Shown piece by piece: positions 16-27,511 of a stretch of DNA of 27,871 bases. Below the pieces are notes generated by a model that saw nothing but the letters and a program-made list of their open reading frames with translations, made no database searches and was not told where the DNA came from. Each line of letters starts with the position of its first letter. Within the stretch, counting starts at the first letter, position 1. This DNA comes from a virus (taxonomy: Duplodnaviria > Caudoviricetes): positions 1-27,871 of IMG/VR virus record IMGVR_UViG_3300032216_001242; one strand, given 5' to 3'. The position numbers were made by a program, and so were the translations under genes.

Positions 16-45
16 AAAAAACCCTTGGCAGTTTCCCGCCAAGGG
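16..45 (-). terminator. Rho-independent terminator ending the late/lysis region (and the candidate sRNA)
   Basis: Minus strand CCCTTGGCGG-GAAA-CTGCCAAGGG followed by TTTTTT. Confidence 0.85.
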
Positions 46-77
46 CAAGTCACGGGAGGAAACGATCAATGACCGCA
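16..77 (-). ncRNA. Candidate small RNA with anti-Shine-Dalgarno loop (UUCCUCCC) plus terminator hairpin
   Basis: Lies downstream of a late motif copy (109-122) with TTGCTG-17-AAGGAT; stem GTCAT/GTGAC encloses TGATCGTTTCCTCCC; terminator follows; no ORF on this strand. Confidence 0.5.
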
Positions 78-108
78 TAGCCATCCTTGCGAGAGCGTGG
101 CCGCCCAG

Positions 109-122
109 CAATGCACAGCTCA
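109..122 (-). promoter_or_regulatory. Late promoter/activator motif copy (TGAGCTGTGCATTG)
   Basis: GTGCATTG core shared with other copies; overlaps the stop codon of the SGNH gene. Confidence 0.6.
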
Positions 123-515
123 AGGCCAGCTCTTCATTGCCCAGCTTGCCAGCAACGCCGAGTTGTTGGGATGCACGCCGTCGCGCGTGGCAAAATTTCC
201 ATTGAGGGCGATCCAACCGTCATGCCATTCAAACGCCACTTGCTTGACCACGCTCGCCACGCTCCACGCATAAGGCAAAATCCATATGACCTGACGCGCC
301 GTGATCTTGGCCCGCAGCTTGCGCAGATGATCCGCCAAGCGCGGGTCGCCCAGATCGTTGGACCCCAGCGAGATGATCACCTTGTCAAAGCTAAGCTGCG
401 TTACCCGCGCCTCTTGATCCCTCGACGTCCGCCCGCCCTTTGCCGCCAGCGCGCAAGGCGTGAAGCCTGAAATGCCAACGGCGATGCTGTCGCCCACCAC
501 CACGCAATCCATCAT
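120..515 (-). CDS. SGNH/GDSL-type hydrolase (esterase/deacetylase-like)
   Basis: Block I VVGDS, block III LGSND, block V DGVHP; ATG at 515 overlaps the o-spanin stop (ATGA). Confidence 0.8.
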   Translation of the reverse strand: MMDCVVVGDSIAVGISGFTPCALAAKGGRTSRDQEARVTQLSFDKVIISLGSNDLGDPRLADHLRKLRAKITARQVIWILPYAWSVASVVKQVAFEWHDGWIALNGNFATRDGVHPNNSALLASWAMKSWP

Positions 516-712
516 GGCGCGCTCCCATTGCACCACGCATCGCGCCGCGCGTTGTTGGTCTTGACCTCGCCAATGGTCTGGTCCGTATCCTTCTTGGACC
601 AGCTGACGTCCCGCCAAACGGCGCAAGCGGAACGGTTAGTCCCGACTGTTCCTATCGGGATTGCGCAGCCCGTCACCAGACAGCCGCAAATTATCACCAG
701 CACGAAGCGCAT
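512..712 (-). CDS. o-spanin (Rz1-like lipoprotein)
   Basis: Signal peptide with lipobox LVTG-C, two further Cys, overlaps the 3' end of the i-spanin gene in another frame. Confidence 0.75.
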   Translation of the reverse strand: MRFVLVIICGCLVTGCAIPIGTVGTNRSACAVWRDVSWSKKDTDQTIGEVKTNNARRDAWCNGSAP

Positions 713-866
713 CTTGTGTCCTCCTCAATGCGTCAGCCGTCGCCTCTGCCTCGACCTGAGCCACAGCGTCCGACCTGATTTTCCAGTAGGTTCCAACCAG
801 CAACGACACCGCCACAAAAGCGATCAGCGCGTAGCGGCCAATGGGGGAGAAGAGCAGGGCAATCAT
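636..866 (-). CDS. i-spanin (Rz-like)
   Basis: N-terminal TM helix then Ala/Arg-rich helical stretch; ATG at 866 overlaps the endolysin stop. Confidence 0.7.
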   Translation of the reverse strand: MIALLFSPIGRYALIAFVAVSLLVGTYWKIRSDAVAQVEAEATADALRRTQDALRAGDNLRLSGDGLRNPDRNSRD

Positions 867-1699
867 ACGCCATGCTCCTGCATGTGTTTGCTGCGCCAAT
901 ACCAAATGGCCGCGCCGATCCCCACCACAGCCACCATGATCAAGAAGTTTGGCGAGCGGATCAGGTTCATGATCTGATCAAAGACGTCGTTGGCCTGTTG
1001 CACTTGGACCACCACCTCGTTGACAGCCCCGACGCTGCCGAGCGCGCCGATGGCGATGGCTCCGTTGCCCTGCTTGCTATCGAGCATTGTCTTGGGTGGC
1101 GGGGGCGCAGCCTCCACAGCAGGCGGCTCCGCCACAGCGGCGATAGGCCCAGGAATTTCCTCGCGCAGCCACAAAGCCTTGGCGCGAGCGAGGTTCACCC
1201 TCCGATCCTCCAGCCCATTGATCCCGCCGTTGATCTTCTTGGTGATGGCCAGCACGTCGTCGGCGTCAGCCAGCGCGTTGAGTTTGCGGCTCTTCCAATA
1301 CTCGCAAGCGATCAGCAAGGCGACGTCTGGCTTTGCGGCCAGCTCTGGATTGATCACCAAGTCACGCCCGATTCGTTTGCTCATATCCGCATAGTTGGCG
1401 CGGCCCGTCAGCTGGAAGATGCCGCGACCACGGAACAGATAGCCGTCGCCGTCCTGCGTGTTGCCGAGGTTCTTGCGCCCCTCGTATTTGGTTTGAGCTG
1501 GCGTCGGCCCCCAGATTTCCGTCAGGTATTTGAACCCGCCCGACTCATGCGCGGCCTGCGCCCAAAAGTGGCAGCGGCGCAGCGGCGTGTTGATCTCATA
1601 CTTTTCAAAGAGGTCGGGGCACGCCTTGGCCAACGCCGTCACTGTCTCCAGTTTTGCGTGCGGCCCAAGATTGTGCAACTGATCTGCAAGGTCGCTCAT
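863..1699 (-). CDS. Endolysin, glycoside hydrolase family 19, with Pro-rich linker and hydrophobic C-terminal tail
   Basis: HFWAQAAHESGGF, LGNTQDGDGYLFRGRGIFQLTGRANY, ITKKINGGINGLEDR motifs; AGGAGG RBS. Confidence 0.9.
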   Translation of the reverse strand: MSDLADQLHNLGPHAKLETVTALAKACPDLFEKYEINTPLRRCHFWAQAAHESGGFKYLTEIWGPTPAQTKYEGRKNLGNTQDGDGYLFRGRGIFQLTGRANYADMSKRIGRDLVINPELAAKPDVALLIACEYWKSRKLNALADADDVLAITKKINGGINGLEDRRVNLARAKALWLREEIPGPIAAVAEPPAVEAAPPPPKTMLDSKQGNGAIAIGALGSVGAVNEVVVQVQQANDVFDQIMNLIRSPNFLIMVAVVGIGAAIWYWRSKHMQEHGV

Positions 1700-2351: not shown

Positions 2352-3275
2352 TCAGAGCTCCGCACTAAGTGTAGTCGGTGTAGTAGTCCTATAAAAACAG
2401 TTACCCGCAACCGTGGAAATCGCATCAAAAACTACTGTATTGATGGTTGTTGTAAGTGTTGGAGAGGGAACATTTTGTACACTCCATCCACTTGCACTTG
2501 CAGTTGGTGCTGTTCGCATAGTTACTGGCAAAGATATCGTTGTCTGCAAATTATTACCAGCAGCATATGCCAAGTATGCGGTCATATAGACATTGTTTAT
2601 CAACTGATAATACCGTTGGCACAGCATCAACTCCTGCCCATACTGCCGCCGCTCAAAGGGCGTAGCGACCGATCCTGCTTCAAGCTGGATATTAGTTATG
2701 GTCAAAGTGCCTGTAGTAATGCCGACGGCTGCACGAAATTCAATGCGCAAACCGTTTGATGCACCAGCTGGCAATGCCACTTGAAACGAATATGTTGTAG
2801 CTGTTGGCGATATGGTGATTGTGCTTAGCGCAACATTGGTGACCGAGGTATAGTTATCTGATGCAGTTGGAAAATCTATCGAATAGGTCAAGGTTGTGAT
2901 CGACGATGATTTTACATTAAGGCTAATGGTTACGGTTGTTCCCGCAAGATCAGCAATGTTATTGCTTTCAATCTTTTGTCCAATAACTGCATAACTGTTG
3001 CTGGCCGCTCCTGTGATTTGCAATCCAGATGGACCTGACACACGCTGGTAAGCAAGCGCAGCACCGAGCGTAAAACCATACCAGCGGTCAACGGTATAAA
3101 TCTGCGAGCTGACTGATACGCTAAGCGATGCCCCCGCATTGCGCTGGTCAATCCGCATATCGCCATTGATGATGCGGTTGCGCATGGACAGCGACCCACC
3201 CTCAAAGGCCAGCTTTGAATTAGACACAAGCCCGGATGAATTGAGAAGGCCCGCGAGGTATGTTGCCATCGACAT
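2352..3275 (-). CDS. Tail fibre / receptor-binding-associated protein with carbohydrate-binding-like core
   Basis: RNRIINGDMRIDQRN and IQLEAGSVATPFERRQYGQELMLCQRYY motifs typical of phage fibre proteins; Thr/Ser-rich; AT-richer than the structural core. Confidence 0.7.
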   Translation of the reverse strand: MSMATYLAGLLNSSGLVSNSKLAFEGGSLSMRNRIINGDMRIDQRNAGASLSVSVSSQIYTVDRWYGFTLGAALAYQRVSGPSGLQITGAASNSYAVIGQKIESNNIADLAGTTVTISLNVKSSSITTLTYSIDFPTASDNYTSVTNVALSTITISPTATTYSFQVALPAGASNGLRIEFRAAVGITTGTLTITNIQLEAGSVATPFERRQYGQELMLCQRYYQLINNVYMTAYLAYAAGNNLQTTISLPVTMRTAPTASASGWSVQNVPSPTLTTTINTVVFDAISTVAGNCFYRTTTPTTLSAEL

Positions 3276-3279
3276 TGCG

Positions 3280-3546
3280 TTAGCCTTTCTGGATGTTAAT
3301 GAGGCGACTGTTAGGTTCTAAGGCGACAAAGGCGTGATAGACGCCGGGCTCCCAATCAAGCAATGCACCAGTCTTAATTTCAGTTTCCCATCCATCGCCG
3401 CTGGCTTTGAACGAACCACGCGCTACGATTGAGATGTGAACATCAAGCTCGGTGTGCGTGTGCCGCTCAAGCTCATCGCCGACGTTGTCAAAATCGTAGA
3501 TTGTGCCGCGCAGTTTACCAAGCGCAAGAGGACTAGGATGCAACAA
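3280..3546 (-). CDS. Small cupin-fold protein
   Basis: HTH...H...ARGS and GVYHAFVALE cupin motifs; TTG start with GGAGG RBS. Confidence 0.7.
   Translation of the reverse strand: MLHPSPLALGKLRGTIYDFDNVGDELERHTHTELDVHISIVARGSFKASGDGWETEIKTGALLDWEPGVYHAFVALEPNSRLINIQKG
3361..3373 (-). promoter_or_regulatory. Possible internal copy of the late motif upstream of the second fibre gene
   Basis: GACTGGTGCATTG inside the cupin gene, ~85 nt upstream of the 3275 start. Confidence 0.3.
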
Positions 3547-3792: not shown

Positions 3793-6084
3793 TCACGTCT
3801 TGATGTAATTGTAGACAAGCATTTGATTTGATGAGTTAGTTGTCGTGATAGTTGGCACAGGGAATTGCGTGGCTGCCGTGTAATTATACAAATCAGAGGC
3901 AACGCTGCGCAGCGGTGTCGCGCTATCATAGCCGTAAAAACGAGTGCCAGTAGATGGCGTTGCAGAGATGTAAGCCTGTGGGTATCCTGTTACTTTAGTC
4001 GGGGTTAGCCAATTAATTAAATCAAGGCTAATTGTAGTTTGCGACGTATAAGCATTGGCGTTGCCACGAATACGAACTGTTGGGCCGCCTGTTGCGATAA
4101 GAGACCAAGAGCTTGCTGCGCCTGTTGTGCTGGTCCAAATATTGCCAGAGTTGGTCGTAATGATATAGCGACCATTGACATAAGAGATGCCGCCAGCAGT
4201 ATCAGAAATTGCGCCAGTTAAAGTGACGCCCATTGTTGACGTAATGTCTGTCCACGTTAGTGCATCTGTAGAATAGTAAACAGTGAAGACGCCATTAAGG
4301 CTCGACAAAATAACAGCACTTGTCGAACTTGCAGCAACGTAAAGAATATATTGATATGATGAATTAGAAGGAATTGTAGTTGAGTTTATGGTCCATGTGA
4401 TCCCATCAGTGCTGGTATGTATCCGCAAATAAGCAGGACCGAATGCGCAGCAAGCCCCCGTATTATAAGAATTTGATACTCCAATAAACCGATTGCCTGT
4501 AGATCCAAAAGCCAAATCATTGAAATTATAACTATTAGTTCCCACGGAACCAGAAGCACGGTGCGTCCACGTCACCAAATCAGGGGATGTGACAACATAA
4601 GTAATTGCGGAGTTAGGGGCATATGTTGACGTCATTACATAAATGCTGTTTCCATAAGCAACATAGTTTTTGTTCATTGTAGGGTAAACATTTCCGCCTG
4701 CGCGCAACGTCCATGTTGTTCCGTCTGTGCTAGTTTGCAATCCATTGGCGAGTGCCCCAGCAGCGGATGAGCTGGCTGTTCCTGTGCGAAACAAAACATT
4801 GTTTGCAATTTGAATTGGATAGTAATTGTTTGCAATGGCATTGGTGTTAGCCAAGAAAGTTTGCACAGGCGCGACAGGCGTGCCGATTAAAGCGGCAAGG
4901 GCTGGATATGTAGTGCGTGTGTAGATTGATCCGTCGCAACGAAGATACCCTGTAAGCGATGATTGCACGCTTGTCTGGATATTGCCCACTGCGTTAACCA
5001 CAGCCCATGTGCCGTCGCCGCGCAAAAAGGTTGTGCTGTCAGCCGTGCCAGACCCAAGAACTGCAGGAGCAAGATAGCCACTGGAAACTGCAGATGCTGG
5101 AATGCTTGCTACATTAAACGTGCCGTAGCCAATAATGTCTACGTTGTCGCCAGAAGCAGCAGCGGACAGCAATACAATTTGCGTGCCACTTGTGTCGGTA
5201 AAGTCAACTGTGCGCGTTAATTTTGCACCATTGCGGAACACATCAACGTAGCCGCCAATGTCATACACGGCAGCAAAAGTGGTTTGCCCAGAAGTGGCTG
5301 TGTAATTGTAACGAGCCGATGTGCCATTGACTACAGATGCAGCTGCTACCCAACCAGTTCCATTCCAAACTTTCATGATGGAAGAAGAGGTGTCATAATA
5401 CAAATCACCAGCCGTTAAAACGCTGCCGTTGCCATCAGTTGTAGGAGCAGTTGCGCTTCCACCAACGTAAGTTGATTTGAAAGAAGTCAACAAAGCCGCC
5501 GCAGATGTGGCCGACGTTGAAGCTGCTGTTGCCGATCCAGCCGCTGCCGTAGCTGAAGTTGCCGCCGCTGAAGCATATGAAGCTCCAATAGCATTGTTGG
5601 CATCGGCATAGGCTTTTGTCACTGCATCCGTGCTAGCCGTAGGCGTGCCAAGGTTAGTGATCCTATTGCCTTTGGCCAGATAGGCACCAGACCCGTCAAC
5701 GTCGCTGGTTGCCAACTGTGGAGCGCGAGCAAACCCATCTCTGATTTGCTGAACCATAGCAACAAGTTTGGAAAGAAATGTGTTAAGCGCGCCAATTTGA
5801 AACGGGCCAGTGATCGGAAGCTCGGTCGTGCGGTTGTAGGGCACAGCGCGGACAATGGAAATGGCGTCGCCCGACGTTGCACCGCTTGTCAAAGTGACGG
5901 TTAGCCCGCTAGACGCCCCATAATTGGTAACGGTGTAGTTAGTGGCCAGCGTCAGCAGCGCGCCGTTCTTGTAGACTTTGAGGTCGCTGGCGTCAAAGCA
6001 AACGAACGACAAGGAAAAAACGGTCTGGCCGCTGGTCGCCACATAGTCGGCGCGAGCAGTGACGTCATTGATTGTAATGCCCAT
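3793..6084 (-). CDS. Tail fibre protein (podovirus N-terminal anchor, Ala/Ser/Thr stalk, collar-like motif, Asp-box repeat region)
   Basis: N-terminal YVATSGQTVF..DLKVYKNG anchor, NRITNLGTP..DAVTKAY, GYLRCDGS collar-like motif, repeated S-x-D-G/L-x-T-W; AGGAGG RBS. Confidence 0.85.
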   Translation of the reverse strand: MGITINDVTARADYVATSGQTVFSLSFVCFDASDLKVYKNGALLTLATNYTVTNYGASSGLTVTLTSGATSGDAISIVRAVPYNRTTELPITGPFQIGALNTFLSKLVAMVQQIRDGFARAPQLATSDVDGSGAYLAKGNRITNLGTPTASTDAVTKAYADANNAIGASYASAAATSATAAAGSATAASTSATSAAALLTSFKSTYVGGSATAPTTDGNGSVLTAGDLYYDTSSSIMKVWNGTGWVAAASVVNGTSARYNYTATSGQTTFAAVYDIGGYVDVFRNGAKLTRTVDFTDTSGTQIVLLSAAASGDNVDIIGYGTFNVASIPASAVSSGYLAPAVLGSGTADSTTFLRGDGTWAVVNAVGNIQTSVQSSLTGYLRCDGSIYTRTTYPALAALIGTPVAPVQTFLANTNAIANNYYPIQIANNVLFRTGTASSSAAGALANGLQTSTDGTTWTLRAGGNVYPTMNKNYVAYGNSIYVMTSTYAPNSAITYVVTSPDLVTWTHRASGSVGTNSYNFNDLAFGSTGNRFIGVSNSYNTGACCAFGPAYLRIHTSTDGITWTINSTTIPSNSSYQYILYVAASSTSAVILSSLNGVFTVYYSTDALTWTDITSTMGVTLTGAISDTAGGISYVNGRYIITTNSGNIWTSTTGAASSWSLIATGGPTVRIRGNANAYTSQTTISLDLINWLTPTKVTGYPQAYISATPSTGTRFYGYDSATPLRSVASDLYNYTAATQFPVPTITTTNSSNQMLVYNYIKT

Positions 6085-6127: not shown

Positions 6128-6139
6128 CAATGCACTGGT
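6128..6139 (-). promoter_or_regulatory. Late motif copy upstream of the tail fibre gene (ACCAGTGCATTG)
   Basis: Intergenic, 44 nt upstream of ATG 6084. Confidence 0.65.
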
Positions 6140-16795: not shown

Positions 16796-16810
16796 GATCC
16801 CTCACATTTG

Positions 16811-16857
16811 AAAACGAGAGGATGAGCGTGGTTGTCAAGACTCAGCTCACCCTCTCG
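16811..16857 (-). terminator. Terminator hairpin after the capsid genes
   Basis: CGAGAGGGTGAGC...GCTCATCCTCTCG followed by TTTT on the minus strand. Confidence 0.7.
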
Positions 16858-16883
16858 CCTATTCCCCCAACCCCCGAGGGAAA

Positions 16884-18143: not shown

Positions 18144-18157
18144 CAATGCACAAGTCA
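18144..18157 (-). promoter_or_regulatory. Late motif copy upstream of the major capsid gene (TGACTTGTGCATTG)
   Basis: Overlaps the GNAT stop; precedes the capsid leader. Confidence 0.65.
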
Positions 18158-21446: not shown

Positions 21447-22961
21447 TTACAATGCACTGGTCAGGCGGCGGCTGCGCGGACGGCGGGCCAGCACGTCGTA
21501 ATTGCCCTTGGCCTGCACGGGCCGCTGCGCGCCTTGGCCAATGGTCAGGCTGCGGCTTTCTCCGCCACCGCACAGCGCATATTGCAGCGCGTCATGGACG
21601 TGGGAGAACTTGTTCTTGTTGGGAGTGCTTTCAAACCGCTCGGTCCCAGAGACTTGCATCCGCCGATAATGATAGCCGCCCGTGAAGCCTTTGCGCAGAT
21701 TGACGCAGCGAGGGTCCAGCAACATGCTGGGCTCCTTGTCGATGACGCGCGTCAGCGGGTTCGCCACTGCTTCAATGCGAAGTGCGGGATCGTTGGTGGG
21801 AGCCGCCCGTGCCGTGATCCCCGCAGTGCGCAGGATTTGAAAAGGGGTGCGCTCATCTGTTTGGGCGCGGTAATCGCCTGCGGGATCGCCCCAGACATGA
21901 TAGCTGAAGCCGGGGAACTGGATCGCGCATTCGGTGCGCACCAGCTCCGAGAAGCGGACAATGCCCATGTCGGTCGCCACCAGCTCGCGCAGGATAAGCC
22001 AGCGATGACGAACGCGCTGACAGAACACGGCGGACGGGGTGAGCCCGAAGTCCATGCCGATAATGATGGGGATGTTGGGAACGGGTTGCAGCGGGTCTTT
22101 GGCGACATGCACATCCTCATCGAAGTCAGGATAGACAGGTTTGCCGTCGGACAGAGACGCCAGTTTGTTCAGCACATAGACGGCGATCCAGTCTTTGGAC
22201 TTGCCTTGGATGATGCGGGAATAATAGTCGGGGGTCAGGTTTTGGATGTTCTCGGCCTTGGGATTGATCTCATAGCCAATCACTTCGCGGTCAGGCCCAT
22301 AGGTGGGGACCATGCCGCCGGGCTGGTTGAAGAACTTCCAAGTCTCGGGCTTCACCAGCATGAGGGCTTCCTCACGGCTGATGTGATCGGGCAGGGGGGC
22401 TTCACCCGCCATGATCGGCCACCAATGGTCATCGTCTGGCGCATTGGTGTCGGCGATCACGCCATACCATGACGGCCCGCCGTCCTTCATTGAAGGGTAG
22501 CGGCCCACGCGCATGGTGCAGGCGTCGATGATGGACTTGGGCAGCTCGCGCGCTTCGTTGACCCAGACGCCCGTCAGCTCCAGCGATAGGAGCTTCTTGA
22601 CGTCTTCGGGCCTGTCGAGGGCGAGGAACAGGATTTCCAGCTCCATGTCTCCCTTGCGGAGCATGTGTCGATAGGGCGGGGGGTGCATGACTATCGGACC
22701 CCAAATGTCCTCGGGGAACCATTGCAGCCACGTTTGCATCGTCGTGGTGCGCAGCATGGGGTAGGAGTTGCGGACGATGGCCCAGCGGGAACGGCGGATG
22801 CCGTCTGGCCCCTTCTTCTGGGCCAGAGCTTTCATGAATATGCCGACGCAGCAGCAGGCCGATTTGCCTGAGCCAACCGGACCGCGCAGCGCACGAAAGA
22901 ATGAGTCGTCGAGCAGGAACTGCTTGAGGGTTTCCCCGCCCGGTTTGTAAAAGAAGCTCAT
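21447..22961 (-). CDS. terL: Terminase large subunit
   Basis: Walker A GPVGSGKS, Walker B VWVNEARE, ADTNAP coupling motif, RNase H-like IIGMDFG and SHVHDALQY. Confidence 0.93.
   Translation of the reverse strand: MSFFYKPGGETLKQFLLDDSFFRALRGPVGSGKSACCCVGIFMKALAQKKGPDGIRRSRWAIVRNSYPMLRTTTMQTWLQWFPEDIWGPIVMHPPPYRHMLRKGDMELEILFLALDRPEDVKKLLSLELTGVWVNEARELPKSIIDACTMRVGRYPSMKDGGPSWYGVIADTNAPDDDHWWPIMAGEAPLPDHISREEALMLVKPETWKFFNQPGGMVPTYGPDREVIGYEINPKAENIQNLTPDYYSRIIQGKSKDWIAVYVLNKLASLSDGKPVYPDFDEDVHVAKDPLQPVPNIPIIIGMDFGLTPSAVFCQRVRHRWLILRELVATDMGIVRFSELVRTECAIQFPGFSYHVWGDPAGDYRAQTDERTPFQILRTAGITARAAPTNDPALRIEAVANPLTRVIDKEPSMLLDPRCVNLRKGFTGGYHYRRMQVSGTERFESTPNKNKFSHVHDALQYALCGGGESRSLTIGQGAQRPVQAKGNYDVLARRPRSRRLTSAL
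21450..21465 (-). promoter_or_regulatory. Late motif copy upstream of the portal block (CCTGACCAGTGCATTG)
   Basis: Embedded in the last terL codons; 15 nt identical to the copy at 24536-24550. Confidence 0.7.
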
Positions 22962-24534: not shown

Positions 24535-24550
24535 AAATGCACTGGTCAGG
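24535..24550 (-). promoter_or_regulatory. Late motif copy upstream of the spike-base gene (CCTGACCAGTGCATTT)
   Basis: Intergenic; 15 nt identical to the copy at 21451-21465. Confidence 0.7.
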
Positions 24551-25138: not shown

Positions 25139-25152
25139 CAATGCACAGGTCA
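25139..25152 (-). promoter_or_regulatory. Late motif copy upstream of terS (TGACCTGTGCATTG running into TTGACA)
   Basis: Motif merges with a consensus -35 TTGACA; lies just downstream of a terminator. Confidence 0.7.
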
Positions 25153-25678: not shown

Positions 25679-25718
25679 ATGCACTACCCCTGCACGGTAT
25701 GCACTACCCCTGCACGGT
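25679..25718. repeat. Perfect 2 x 20 bp tandem repeat ATGCACTACCCCTGCACGGT
   Basis: Read directly from the sequence. Confidence 0.9.
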
Positions 25719-25779
25719 TTGCCTCGCGCGCGTATCCTTACCTATAGATAATATATACTAGATATATAATAACCATTAG
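25679..25779. other. Origin-like element: tandem repeat, CGCGCGCG and AT-rich tract
   Basis: TATAGATAATATATACTAGATATATAATAA in an otherwise GC-rich non-coding region at the strand switch. Confidence 0.45.
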
Positions 25780-26372: not shown

Positions 26373-26900
26373 ATGACCAAGAAATCAACAGACCTCGTCA
26401 ACGCAATGGAATCCGCTTTGACCGTTTTCGCTGGTGAATTTACAGATTTTCAACAGAAAGTCGATCAAGACGGCGAAGTCACGATCTACAACGGAATGGC
26501 CTACATCCAGCGTCGAATGCTGAACGGCATCTGCTACACCGCTGAAAAGCTGATCGAGGAGCAGTATGAAACGCTCGGCACTGCGGGCAAGAAGCTCGCC
26601 CGTCTCGTCCGCTCGCAGGACGGCAACGAGATCGGCACCAAGCAGATCGAGGATCAGACACGTTGGGTCCAGCGGTTGCAGCTGCAAGTGGCGGTTCTGA
26701 CCAACTGCTTCGAACAGGCGAAGGCCGTGCATCTGAAAGAACTGGGCGAGGCCTACGTCCCTTATCGCCAGCGCACCAAGCCAGACGCCGCCAAGGCTGC
26801 GATCAACGGCGAACCCTCAGAGGCTCTGCGCAACGCGATGGCGATCCTCGAAACTCTGGGAGCCAACGTTCCTGATCCTACCGCCCTGCGTATCCACTAA
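26373..26900 (+). CDS. Hypothetical protein (helical), probable early gene
   Basis: AGGAG RBS, GC3-biased codons, followed by a terminator. Confidence 0.8.
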   Translation: MTKKSTDLVNAMESALTVFAGEFTDFQQKVDQDGEVTIYNGMAYIQRRMLNGICYTAEKLIEEQYETLGTAGKKLARLVRSQDGNEIGTKQIEDQTRWVQRLQLQVAVLTNCFEQAKAVHLKELGEAYVPYRQRTKPDAAKAAINGEPSEALRNAMAILETLGANVPDPTALRIH

Positions 26901-26956: not shown

Positions 26957-27139
26957 ATGTCGCACGACATCAACAATCTCATGAACCGCTGGCGCGAGGG
27001 TCTGCTCGCACACACCGAAATTCTTTACCTTCTGATTTGCATCAATGCGGAGACCACAGACGCTCTGCATCAGGTGCAAAAAGTCATGCAATCAGAGTTT
27101 TTGTCTCAATTTCCAACGGAGGACGACCATGCCAACTAG
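26957..27139 (+). CDS. Small hypothetical protein
   Basis: GGAGGA RBS before ATG 26957. Confidence 0.6.
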   Translation: MSHDINNLMNRWREGLLAHTEILYLLICINAETTDALHQVQKVMQSEFLSQFPTEDDHAN

Positions 27140-27326
27140 CATCATCGACATGATTTCCGAGCGCAATGATCTGCAAGCCGAGTTGCACCAGACCAACGGC
27201 TACCGCAACCGATGGGAACTGCAAGAGCAGATCAACGCGCTCGACGACCTCATCGATTACGAGCTTGATCTTTACGAAACAGAGAAGTTCAACGCTCGAG
27301 TGGCGTTAGCCGACTATCATCCCTGA
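27129..27326 (+). CDS. Small acidic hypothetical protein
   Basis: GGAGGA RBS before ATG 27129; overlaps the upstream stop. Confidence 0.65.
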   Translation: MPTSIIDMISERNDLQAELHQTNGYRNRWELQEQINALDDLIDYELDLYETEKFNARVALADYHP

Positions 27327-27332
27327 TCTAAC

Positions 27333-27367
27333 GAGCCCGCATCCTTTGGGATAGCGGGCTTTTTTTA
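27333..27367 (+). terminator. Rho-independent terminator
   Basis: AGCCCGC-ATCC-TTTG-GGAT-A-GCGGGCT followed by a T-run. Confidence 0.85.
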
Positions 27368-27511
27368 TGTCGAACAAAGAGATAAAGTTCGGAAAGGTGG
27401 CACCCAGCCCGACCCGCCGAAGGCAGGGGAGGGGGACGGAACCAGCTGGGGCGACCCAGAAAATTCCTGGGCCCCACTTACATTTCACCGCAGTTTCCAA
27501 GGATTATTAAA

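Follow-up and report, generated by a model that had tools for sequence, protein, structure and literature searches.

A predicted alpha-r8-type small RNA behind a repeated phage box at the lysis-gene end of a probable podovirus genome

The alpha-r8 small RNAs of Alphaproteobacteria, which include MmgR of Sinorhizobium meliloti, SisA–D of Caulobacter crescentus and SuhB of Sphingopyxis granuli, combine a weak 5′ hairpin, a CU-rich seed held single-stranded between this hairpin and the terminator, the sequence GACUU and a terminator with a U tail, all of which are predicted in the RNA described here (PMC12559287, PMC1273637). In its first description the motif was presented as a small RNA equipped with a promoter and a terminator of its own (PMC1273637). 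SisA is reported to repress the mRNAs of TonB-dependent receptors through direct, Hfq-aided pairing of a 10-mer and to be neutralised by the sponge RNA CrfA when cells are starved of carbon (PMC12559287). MmgR reduces the levels of phasins and PHB (review PMC8401924), and SuhB binds and blocks the Shine–Dalgarno sequence of thnR with Hfq (preprint 10.64898/2025.12.09.693200). Whereas mmgR is controlled by NtrC and AniA and suhB by a LysR factor (PMC8401924, 10.64898/2025.12.09.693200), the copy described here has a phage box upstream. Furthermore, it is located in a phage, after lysis genes, and not beside an FGase gene.

Known phage small RNAs come mostly from enterobacteria and vibrios, and those of enterobacterial phages and prophages have, as far as is known, phage-specific sequences. 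In contrast, the present RNA appears to be a copy of a conserved host family. It is comparable with the PR′ RNA of Shiga-toxin phage (PMC7547250) and a small RNA of phage lambda (10.1101/2024.10.31.621285), which are reported to be short, to be tied to phage promoters and to regulate host mRNAs; the PR′ RNA, however, comes from the beginning of the late operon, whereas the RNA described here lies at its end. A search of the open literature, outside which most subscription papers fell, gave no report of alpha-r8 in phages, and the available text of a 2025 review of phage small RNAs makes no mention of MmgR, Caulobacter, Sinorhizobium or Alphaproteobacteria (PMC12197685). The RNA family is thus a known one, and what is likely to be new is a phage late box driving a copy of it.

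The window, by which we mean the whole stretch of DNA analysed, is a whole IMG/VR record (27,871 bases, linear, estimated to be 82% complete). The genes for terminase, portal, head, tail and lysis proteins are on its minus strand and run towards position 1. G001 (35,068 bases) is the closest complete relative; the structural proteins that it shares with the window are mostly 55–95% identical, and because it also carries integrase, repressor and recombination genes, the window phage is probably a temperate podovirus whose early region is missing from the assembly, which would be 7–10 kb short of the full genome. The best cultured match of the terminase is a Pelagibacter phage (61%), and capsid relatives in bacterial genomes (39–50%) are divided between Alphaproteobacteria and Desulfovibrionaceae and do not identify the host; the tRNA-like fragment of the likely attachment site of G001 had no match in 401 genomes. 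Directly upstream of the RNA is a gene for an SGNH esterase-like protein (Table 1). This gene has no counterpart in G001, and a viral scan with its product as the query gave no loci. A gene of the same type in locus L384 (2722–3096) lies beyond the lysis terminator and on the other strand, whereas that of the window (120–515) is on the late strand at the lysis end. The gene appears to be a mobile passenger of the lysis-end slot.

Table 1. Positions of the predicted RNA, the phage box copies and neighbouring genes in the window
Feature	Position	Strand	Evidence or remark
Predicted small RNA, ~61–63 nt, alpha-r8/suhB/MmgR type	16..76	−	RF00519 24.2 bits; R1 38.2 bits; start predicted at 76–78
Intrinsic terminator: 11-bp stem, GAAA loop, U6	16..46	−	fold and terminator scan
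Family core CGTTTCCTCCCGTGACTT, with the anti-Shine–Dalgarno seed at 62..53	47..64	−	sequence
Weak 5′ hairpin at the position of the family's 5′ hairpin	62..76	−	fold; competes with stem 74..69 / 53..48
Likely −10, AAGGAT (A at −11, T at −7), 17 nt past −35	83..88	−	sequence; predicted function
Likely −35, TTGCTG	106..111	−	sequence; predicted function
Phage box TGAGCTGTGCATTG, core GTGCATTG at 116..109	109..122	−	one of seven co-oriented copies
SGNH/GDSL esterase-like small protein gene, directly upstream of RNA	120..515	−	PF13472, E 4.5e-05, below cut-off
Lysis genes upstream of the esterase-like gene	512..1699	−	endolysin, inner spanin, Rz-like spanin
Rz-like spanin	512–712	−	lysis block
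Likely inner spanin	636–905	−	no family match; role from position
Endolysin	863–1699	−	lysis block
Box copy ahead of tail-fibre gene 2352–3275	3362..3368	−	GTGCATT scan
Box copy ahead of tail gene 3793–6084	6129..6135	−	syntenic in G001, G003, G025, G035, G040
Box copy ahead of major head gene	18145..18151	−	syntenic in G001, G003, G020, G025
Box copy at large terminase gene end, ahead of portal block	21451..21457	−	syntenic in G001, G025
Box copy past small terminase gene	24536..24542	−	GTGCATT scan and relatives
Box copy ahead of small terminase gene	25140..25146	−	syntenic in G001, G004

AbcR and cuckoo small RNAs carry their motif in hairpin loops, usually repeated. The earlier note had compared the RNA with these families, which it resembles in its CU-rich anti-Shine–Dalgarno motif, shown in a loop in one of its two folds; it has one motif only, however, and this is flanked by the CG...GACUU core of alpha-r8. 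The comparison pointed to the wrong family: the AbcR and cuckoo Rfam models gave no match up to E 10 on positions 1–300, and RF00519 (suhB/MmgR) was found instead as the sole meaningful match. The Infernal search that had been proposed as a check did therefore name a family, but its score of 24.2 bits (E 0.0048; 1.1e-4 per genome) is below the cut-off of 41; at this gathering cut-off the whole window has no Rfam match. With R1, a model built from 60 of 91 usable viral copies, the window excluded, the locus scores 38.2 bits (E 8e-10; next best match in the window 11.6), although the training copies were collected by means of the core pattern of the window itself, a bias towards the window that leaves the score not fully independent. 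All eight bacterial RF00519 members, from four genomes, score 36.0–46.6 with R1, a range that includes the value of the window.

The 5′ hairpin is shorter than in alpha-r8 and rewritten; this part is the worst fit to the RF00519 model, and R1 places the hairpin pairs in another register. The seed agrees with the published 10-mer UUUCCUCCCU at nine of ten positions, G replacing the final U (PMC12559287). Such a G at position 10 was seen in two of 77 bacterial matches (from 54 of 201 alphaproteobacterial genomes) and in 0/96 viral terminator-bearing copies, and the GTG found after the seed occurs in none of either set, so that the window copy may be drifting. Traits of the family are predicted here: a seed that is mostly single-stranded downstream of a weak hairpin, with a Rho-independent terminator directly after the core. 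Judged by its sequence, the minus-strand stretch 76..16 is a diverged member of the alpha-r8 (suhB/MmgR/SisA) small RNAs.

All of the sequence features that the earlier note had named between 16 and 122 are present on the minus strand. Its motif faces no gene, since no ORF starts downstream of the box and a single open-ended frame runs in from 216; some 60 nt lead instead to a strong terminator, the 11-bp stem of which (46..21) is followed by six T residues (21..16). The proposed stem consists of GTCAT (73..69) and GTGAC (53..49) around a loop (68..54), and is possible because the last seed base and the next two have changed to GTG. It is not the sole fold, as the 5′ hairpin (76..62) rivals it: with a start at 78 the stem accounts for about 50% of the ensemble and the hairpin for about 45–46%, and with a start at 76 for 64% versus 32%. 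In either fold CCUCC is predicted to be mostly unpaired, and the seed motif, of which there is one copy only, is displayed in the loop in 50–64% of the ensemble. The z score of the 63-nt RNA (−3.5) stems from the terminator (48–78 alone: −0.4). A plus-strand reading, GGGAGGAAAC followed by ATG at 69, was rejected: the frame has three codons, and the reading is the complement of the family core. Overall, the sequence supports a predicted discrete anti-Shine–Dalgarno small RNA of the type known from Alphaproteobacteria, placed behind a phage late box, as the earlier note had suggested.

Activator-dependent phage late promoters, such as those of the Mu C, P1 Lpa and lambda CII type, carry a strand-specific box at or near −35 that is repeated before gene blocks. 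The box of the window resembles them in being strand-specific, in overlapping the likely −35 and in its repetition before gene blocks. GTGCATT occurs seven times on the minus strand of the window and not once on the plus strand, always at or near gene borders. Allowing one mismatch, TGASCWGTGCATTG gives five matches against 0.09 expected, a number that none of 100 shuffles reached, the pattern being post hoc and drawn from the copies. The earlier note had described the repeated late motif as TTGCTG-17-AAGGAT; this string has a single copy in the window and was discarded as the repeat, which is the box. At the RNA locus the box (122..109) shares bases with the esterase-like gene's stop codon and with the TTG of the likely −35. 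G001 has five copies at syntenic places and three extra ones, and more distant relatives retain copies ahead of tail, head, portal or terminase genes. The GTGCATTG box is a family-wide, strand-specific signal of this podovirus group. Two of the extra copies in G001 are around the repressor gene, and because of these the ‘late’ timing of the box is not fixed.

When the TTG of the box is taken as −35 with a 17-nt spacer, A is found at −11 in 17 of 30 late-strand sites (p 2e-4) and T at −7 in only 8/30, the sites being hand-picked and not independent. A weak −7 T is described as typical of alphaproteobacterial sigma-70 promoters (PMC8407463). Among the copies in the window, three of seven fit with a 17-nt spacer and six of seven with 16–18 nt. 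The copy at 116 has both A−11 and T−7, which places the predicted RNA start at 76–78; with an alternative −10, CACGCT (99..94), in a register that also suits two small-terminase sites, the start would move to about 87. A sigma-70 scan found no consensus promoter at the RNA locus. Since the box at the RNA is one of seven at structural-gene borders, and the only one without a gene after it, it is likely that this copy of the RNA has its own late promoter. Promoters of the Mu C, P1 Lpa and lambda CII type use an activator, whereas none was identified here. A plus-strand gene divergent from the small terminase gene (26373–26900) encodes a 175-amino-acid protein that is a candidate regulator by position only. 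The protein is kept in five of 11 related genomes (26–61%) and has five unnamed homologues; it had no family, Atlas or named match, and a viral scan with it gave no loci.

A strain contig allowed comparison of this layout with natural variation. The contig (449 nt, depth 3.4) is from run X2, of the same study as the window's likely source run, and has 23 differences, three of which are not listed. The 20 listed ones include positions 79, 82, 91 and 94 and none at 20–78 or in either hexamer. The contrast between the promoter gap and the RNA (4/41 versus 0/59) has a Fisher p of 0.026, and comparison with the coding gene gives no significant difference (p 0.15). The pattern is a thin fit to the proposed promoter and RNA layout.

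The same region could be explained as the lysis operon's 3′ end: its terminator would act in cis, the small RNA would be cut from the late transcript or would not exist, and the box would be an operator or processing signal. The RNA terminator (16..46) is indeed the first terminator-like site after the lysis genes, and the lysis operons of G005, G020 and G028 close with a terminator and a CU-rich loop in the absence of a box. The position of the box at gene borders, often over stop codons, and the lack of a consensus promoter are also in accordance with this explanation, as is the finding that many of 70 viral loci have a phage gene on the same strand ahead of the core. A terminator, however, requires neither the 18-nt family core nor the box. 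Moreover, the box at the RNA points only at the RNA, the −35/−10 geometry fits, and the hexamers are free of listed changes in X2. We therefore regard an operon end of this kind as unlikely. Late transcription of a separate RNA seems likely instead, because the RNA is placed behind the phage's own structural-gene box.

Copies of the RNA are widespread in phages. The core pattern is present in an estimated ~210 viral contigs, with at least 120 loci among the matches listed. Among these listed matches, a terminator follows the core in 96 of 109 distinct viral matches, but follows only three of 117 positions chosen at random within these loci. Of 20 loci selected among the matches, 14 score above the Rfam cut-off. 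The flanks were scanned in 70 of the first 80 viral loci, five duplicates and five loci without a terminator having been dropped. The same-strand gene before the core encodes a NusG-like antiterminator in nine, a capsid protein in seven, portal in two, large terminase in two and endolysin in one; an integrase faces the RNA in three (L003, L010 and L065), and most other flanks are without a family. Unannotated alpha-r8 copies were found in the cultured phages OP596613 (Bradyrhizobium phage ppBeUSDA76-1; 62.8 bits), PP395640 (62.8 bits) and KY940711 (37 bits). In the window, L019, G040 and PP395640 alike, the RNA occupies the slot where the lysis operon ends and meets convergent genes. PP395640 was deposited as a Microcystis phage, and the full-scoring alphaproteobacterial alpha-r8 RNA that it carries (L409:2495–2578) suggests that an associated alphaproteobacterium may be its true host. 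Tandem copies also occur, three in viral locus L059 (1147–1538) and two in L036, and two bacterial genomes (G115:C60 and G287:C37) have three copies each, about 250–300 nt apart.

Among relatives of the window phage the RNA is sporadic. A blastn search with positions 1–130 against 50,697 cultured phages gave five matches, all at chance level; the core is absent from G001 and from all 27 loci of spanin relatives, and the 79 loci of endolysin relatives are too distant or differently arranged, with no core in endolysin- or capsid-flank loci. Among 46 capsid-related records, many of them fragments, nine have weak RF00519 matches and none exceeds the cut-off; those in G023, G005 and G047 lack seed and terminator and were dropped as spurious. 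G035 has a canonical copy about 1.5 kb beyond an integrase-like gene, and G040 has a degenerate copy directly after its endolysin gene; R1 recovered G035 alone and missed G040. In G029, G031, G032 and G038 an alpha-r8-like hairpin with the seed in the loop follows the capsid genes. After the capsid genes of the window itself (16800–16880, minus strand), a CU-rich hairpin precedes a terminator-like hairpin, an arrangement present in 11 of 12 related genomes, and the place is kept in G001, G003, G004, G005, G020, G025, G028, G029, G035 and G040. This post-capsid element is a candidate for a second family-wide RNA element or a termination gate.

Temperate phages may carry the 3′ part of a tRNA gene as an attachment site. 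By analogy, the phage could integrate in a host alpha-r8 gene and carry the 3′ part of that gene. In the same slot, G001 has arm-like repeats around a tRNA-like 3′ fragment, before a convergent integrase (L280:5090–5560; the tRNA was read by eye, and ARAGORN found no whole tRNA in nine stretches of related phages), which is likely to be the attachment site of G001. The window ends 15 nt past the RNA terminator and the X1 and X2 contigs end at 1 and 9; in the contigs of the sequencing runs searched, none crosses position 1 and no loose end is listed there; no further contig from four runs matched the RNA, which has no bearing on a host copy. Integrases converging on the RNA in three of the 70 loci and the poor fit of the 5′ part to the family model also speak for this reading. 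Nevertheless, a phage box is directly upstream of the RNA, the GTG variant is absent from the 201 alphaproteobacterial genomes searched, and four metagenome contigs with the 19-nt core lack the terminator of the window. Furthermore, the L003, L010 and L065 records hold no second copy, the RNA of G035 is at a distance from the integrase-like gene, and no integrase was called adjacent to those of G040 and PP395640. Taken together, capture through integration appears quite improbable.

We also considered the targets of the RNA within the phage. The earlier note had proposed that the loop pairs with GGAGGACGA ahead of the ATGs at 26957 and 27129 (plus strand), and the 6 + 3 bp pairing can be drawn as described. 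In an intraphage timing switch, the late RNA would silence these two rightward genes. On duplex and co-fold energies, the only measures used for target prediction, 26957 comes first among 37 phage start regions (−19.0 kcal/mol), and co-folding gains are −12.1 kcal/mol for 26957 and −9.6 for 27129. The unusual GU of the core lengthens the pairing with the 26957 leader, and G001 lacks both the RNA and a 26957 homologue. The proposed targets do not stand out from ordinary ones, however: among unrelated GGAGG leaders, 26957 ranks 100/348 and 27129 279/348, that many pairing at least as well. Other natural seeds do as well as the window's own in 14 of 68 cases with the 26957 leader and 63 of 68 with the 27129 leader, and three late genes (endolysin, Rz-like spanin and tail) share GGAGG leaders. 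We consequently attach little probability to such a switch. The two small genes at 26957–27326, both with the GGAGGACGA leader and the second encoding a very acidic product, are followed by a strong terminator near 27334–27368; they are possibly early host-takeover genes. Elsewhere, at 25680–25720 (minus strand), a direct repeat of about 20 nt, arranged in tandem and adjoining an AT-rich stretch, suggests an origin-like or operator-like element; G001 has no match to this region.

A decoy function would be another way of acting on the host. An RNA that titrates a CrfA-type sponge, or Hfq, would free or disturb the host alpha-r8 RNAs. CrfA binds the same 10-mer in SisA–D, and induction of SisA lowers CrfA, in the available text of that report (PMC12559287); an abundant late mimic would titrate such a sponge. 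On the other hand, CrfA is described there in Caulobacter only (PMC12559287), no sponge is known for the host of the window phage, and the demonstrated activity of the family is direct repression. This makes a decoy highly unlikely.

Given the family resemblance, the terminator, the repeated co-oriented box and the wide spread of the module in phages, we think it somewhat probable that the locus encodes an alpha-r8-type phage RNA in which the phage box replaces nutrient control, so that the RNA would be expressed alongside the structural genes and would keep the host regulon repressed whatever the carbon state. The box would be the upstream half of a sigma-70-type promoter that is read with a phage factor, and a separate RNA of about 60 nt, starting at 76–78, would be transcribed late in infection. 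Its terminator would double as the end of the lysis operon, from which read-through may enlarge the RNA pool. By analogy with the host family, the RNA would act with host Hfq in pairing with the Shine–Dalgarno sequences of host mRNAs, stopping their translation, and it would share the targets of the host alpha-r8 RNAs: TonB-dependent receptors and genes for carbon storage or catabolism. The likeliest gain would be that the regulon stays repressed during virion production irrespective of the nutrient signal, with the outcome that there are fewer outer-membrane receptors and that ribosomes and carbon are spared for the phage. More tentatively, phages of Alphaproteobacteria may repeatedly have captured alpha-r8, the feast–famine small RNA of their hosts, as an ‘auxiliary regulatory gene’ and rewired it to their own promoters, the late-driven seed variant described here overriding nutrient control by the host and closing TonB-dependent receptors and carbon storage in the infected cell.

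If true, hundreds of phages would carry a conserved regulator of their hosts, an RNA counterpart of auxiliary metabolic genes in which some 60 nt could reach a whole regulon of nutrient uptake and carbon storage. The proposal lends itself to testing, since Caulobacter offers deletion strains and reporters for this family and unannotated copies are available in cultured phages. Within this wider set, the window is a case in which the promoter context is clearly the phage's own.
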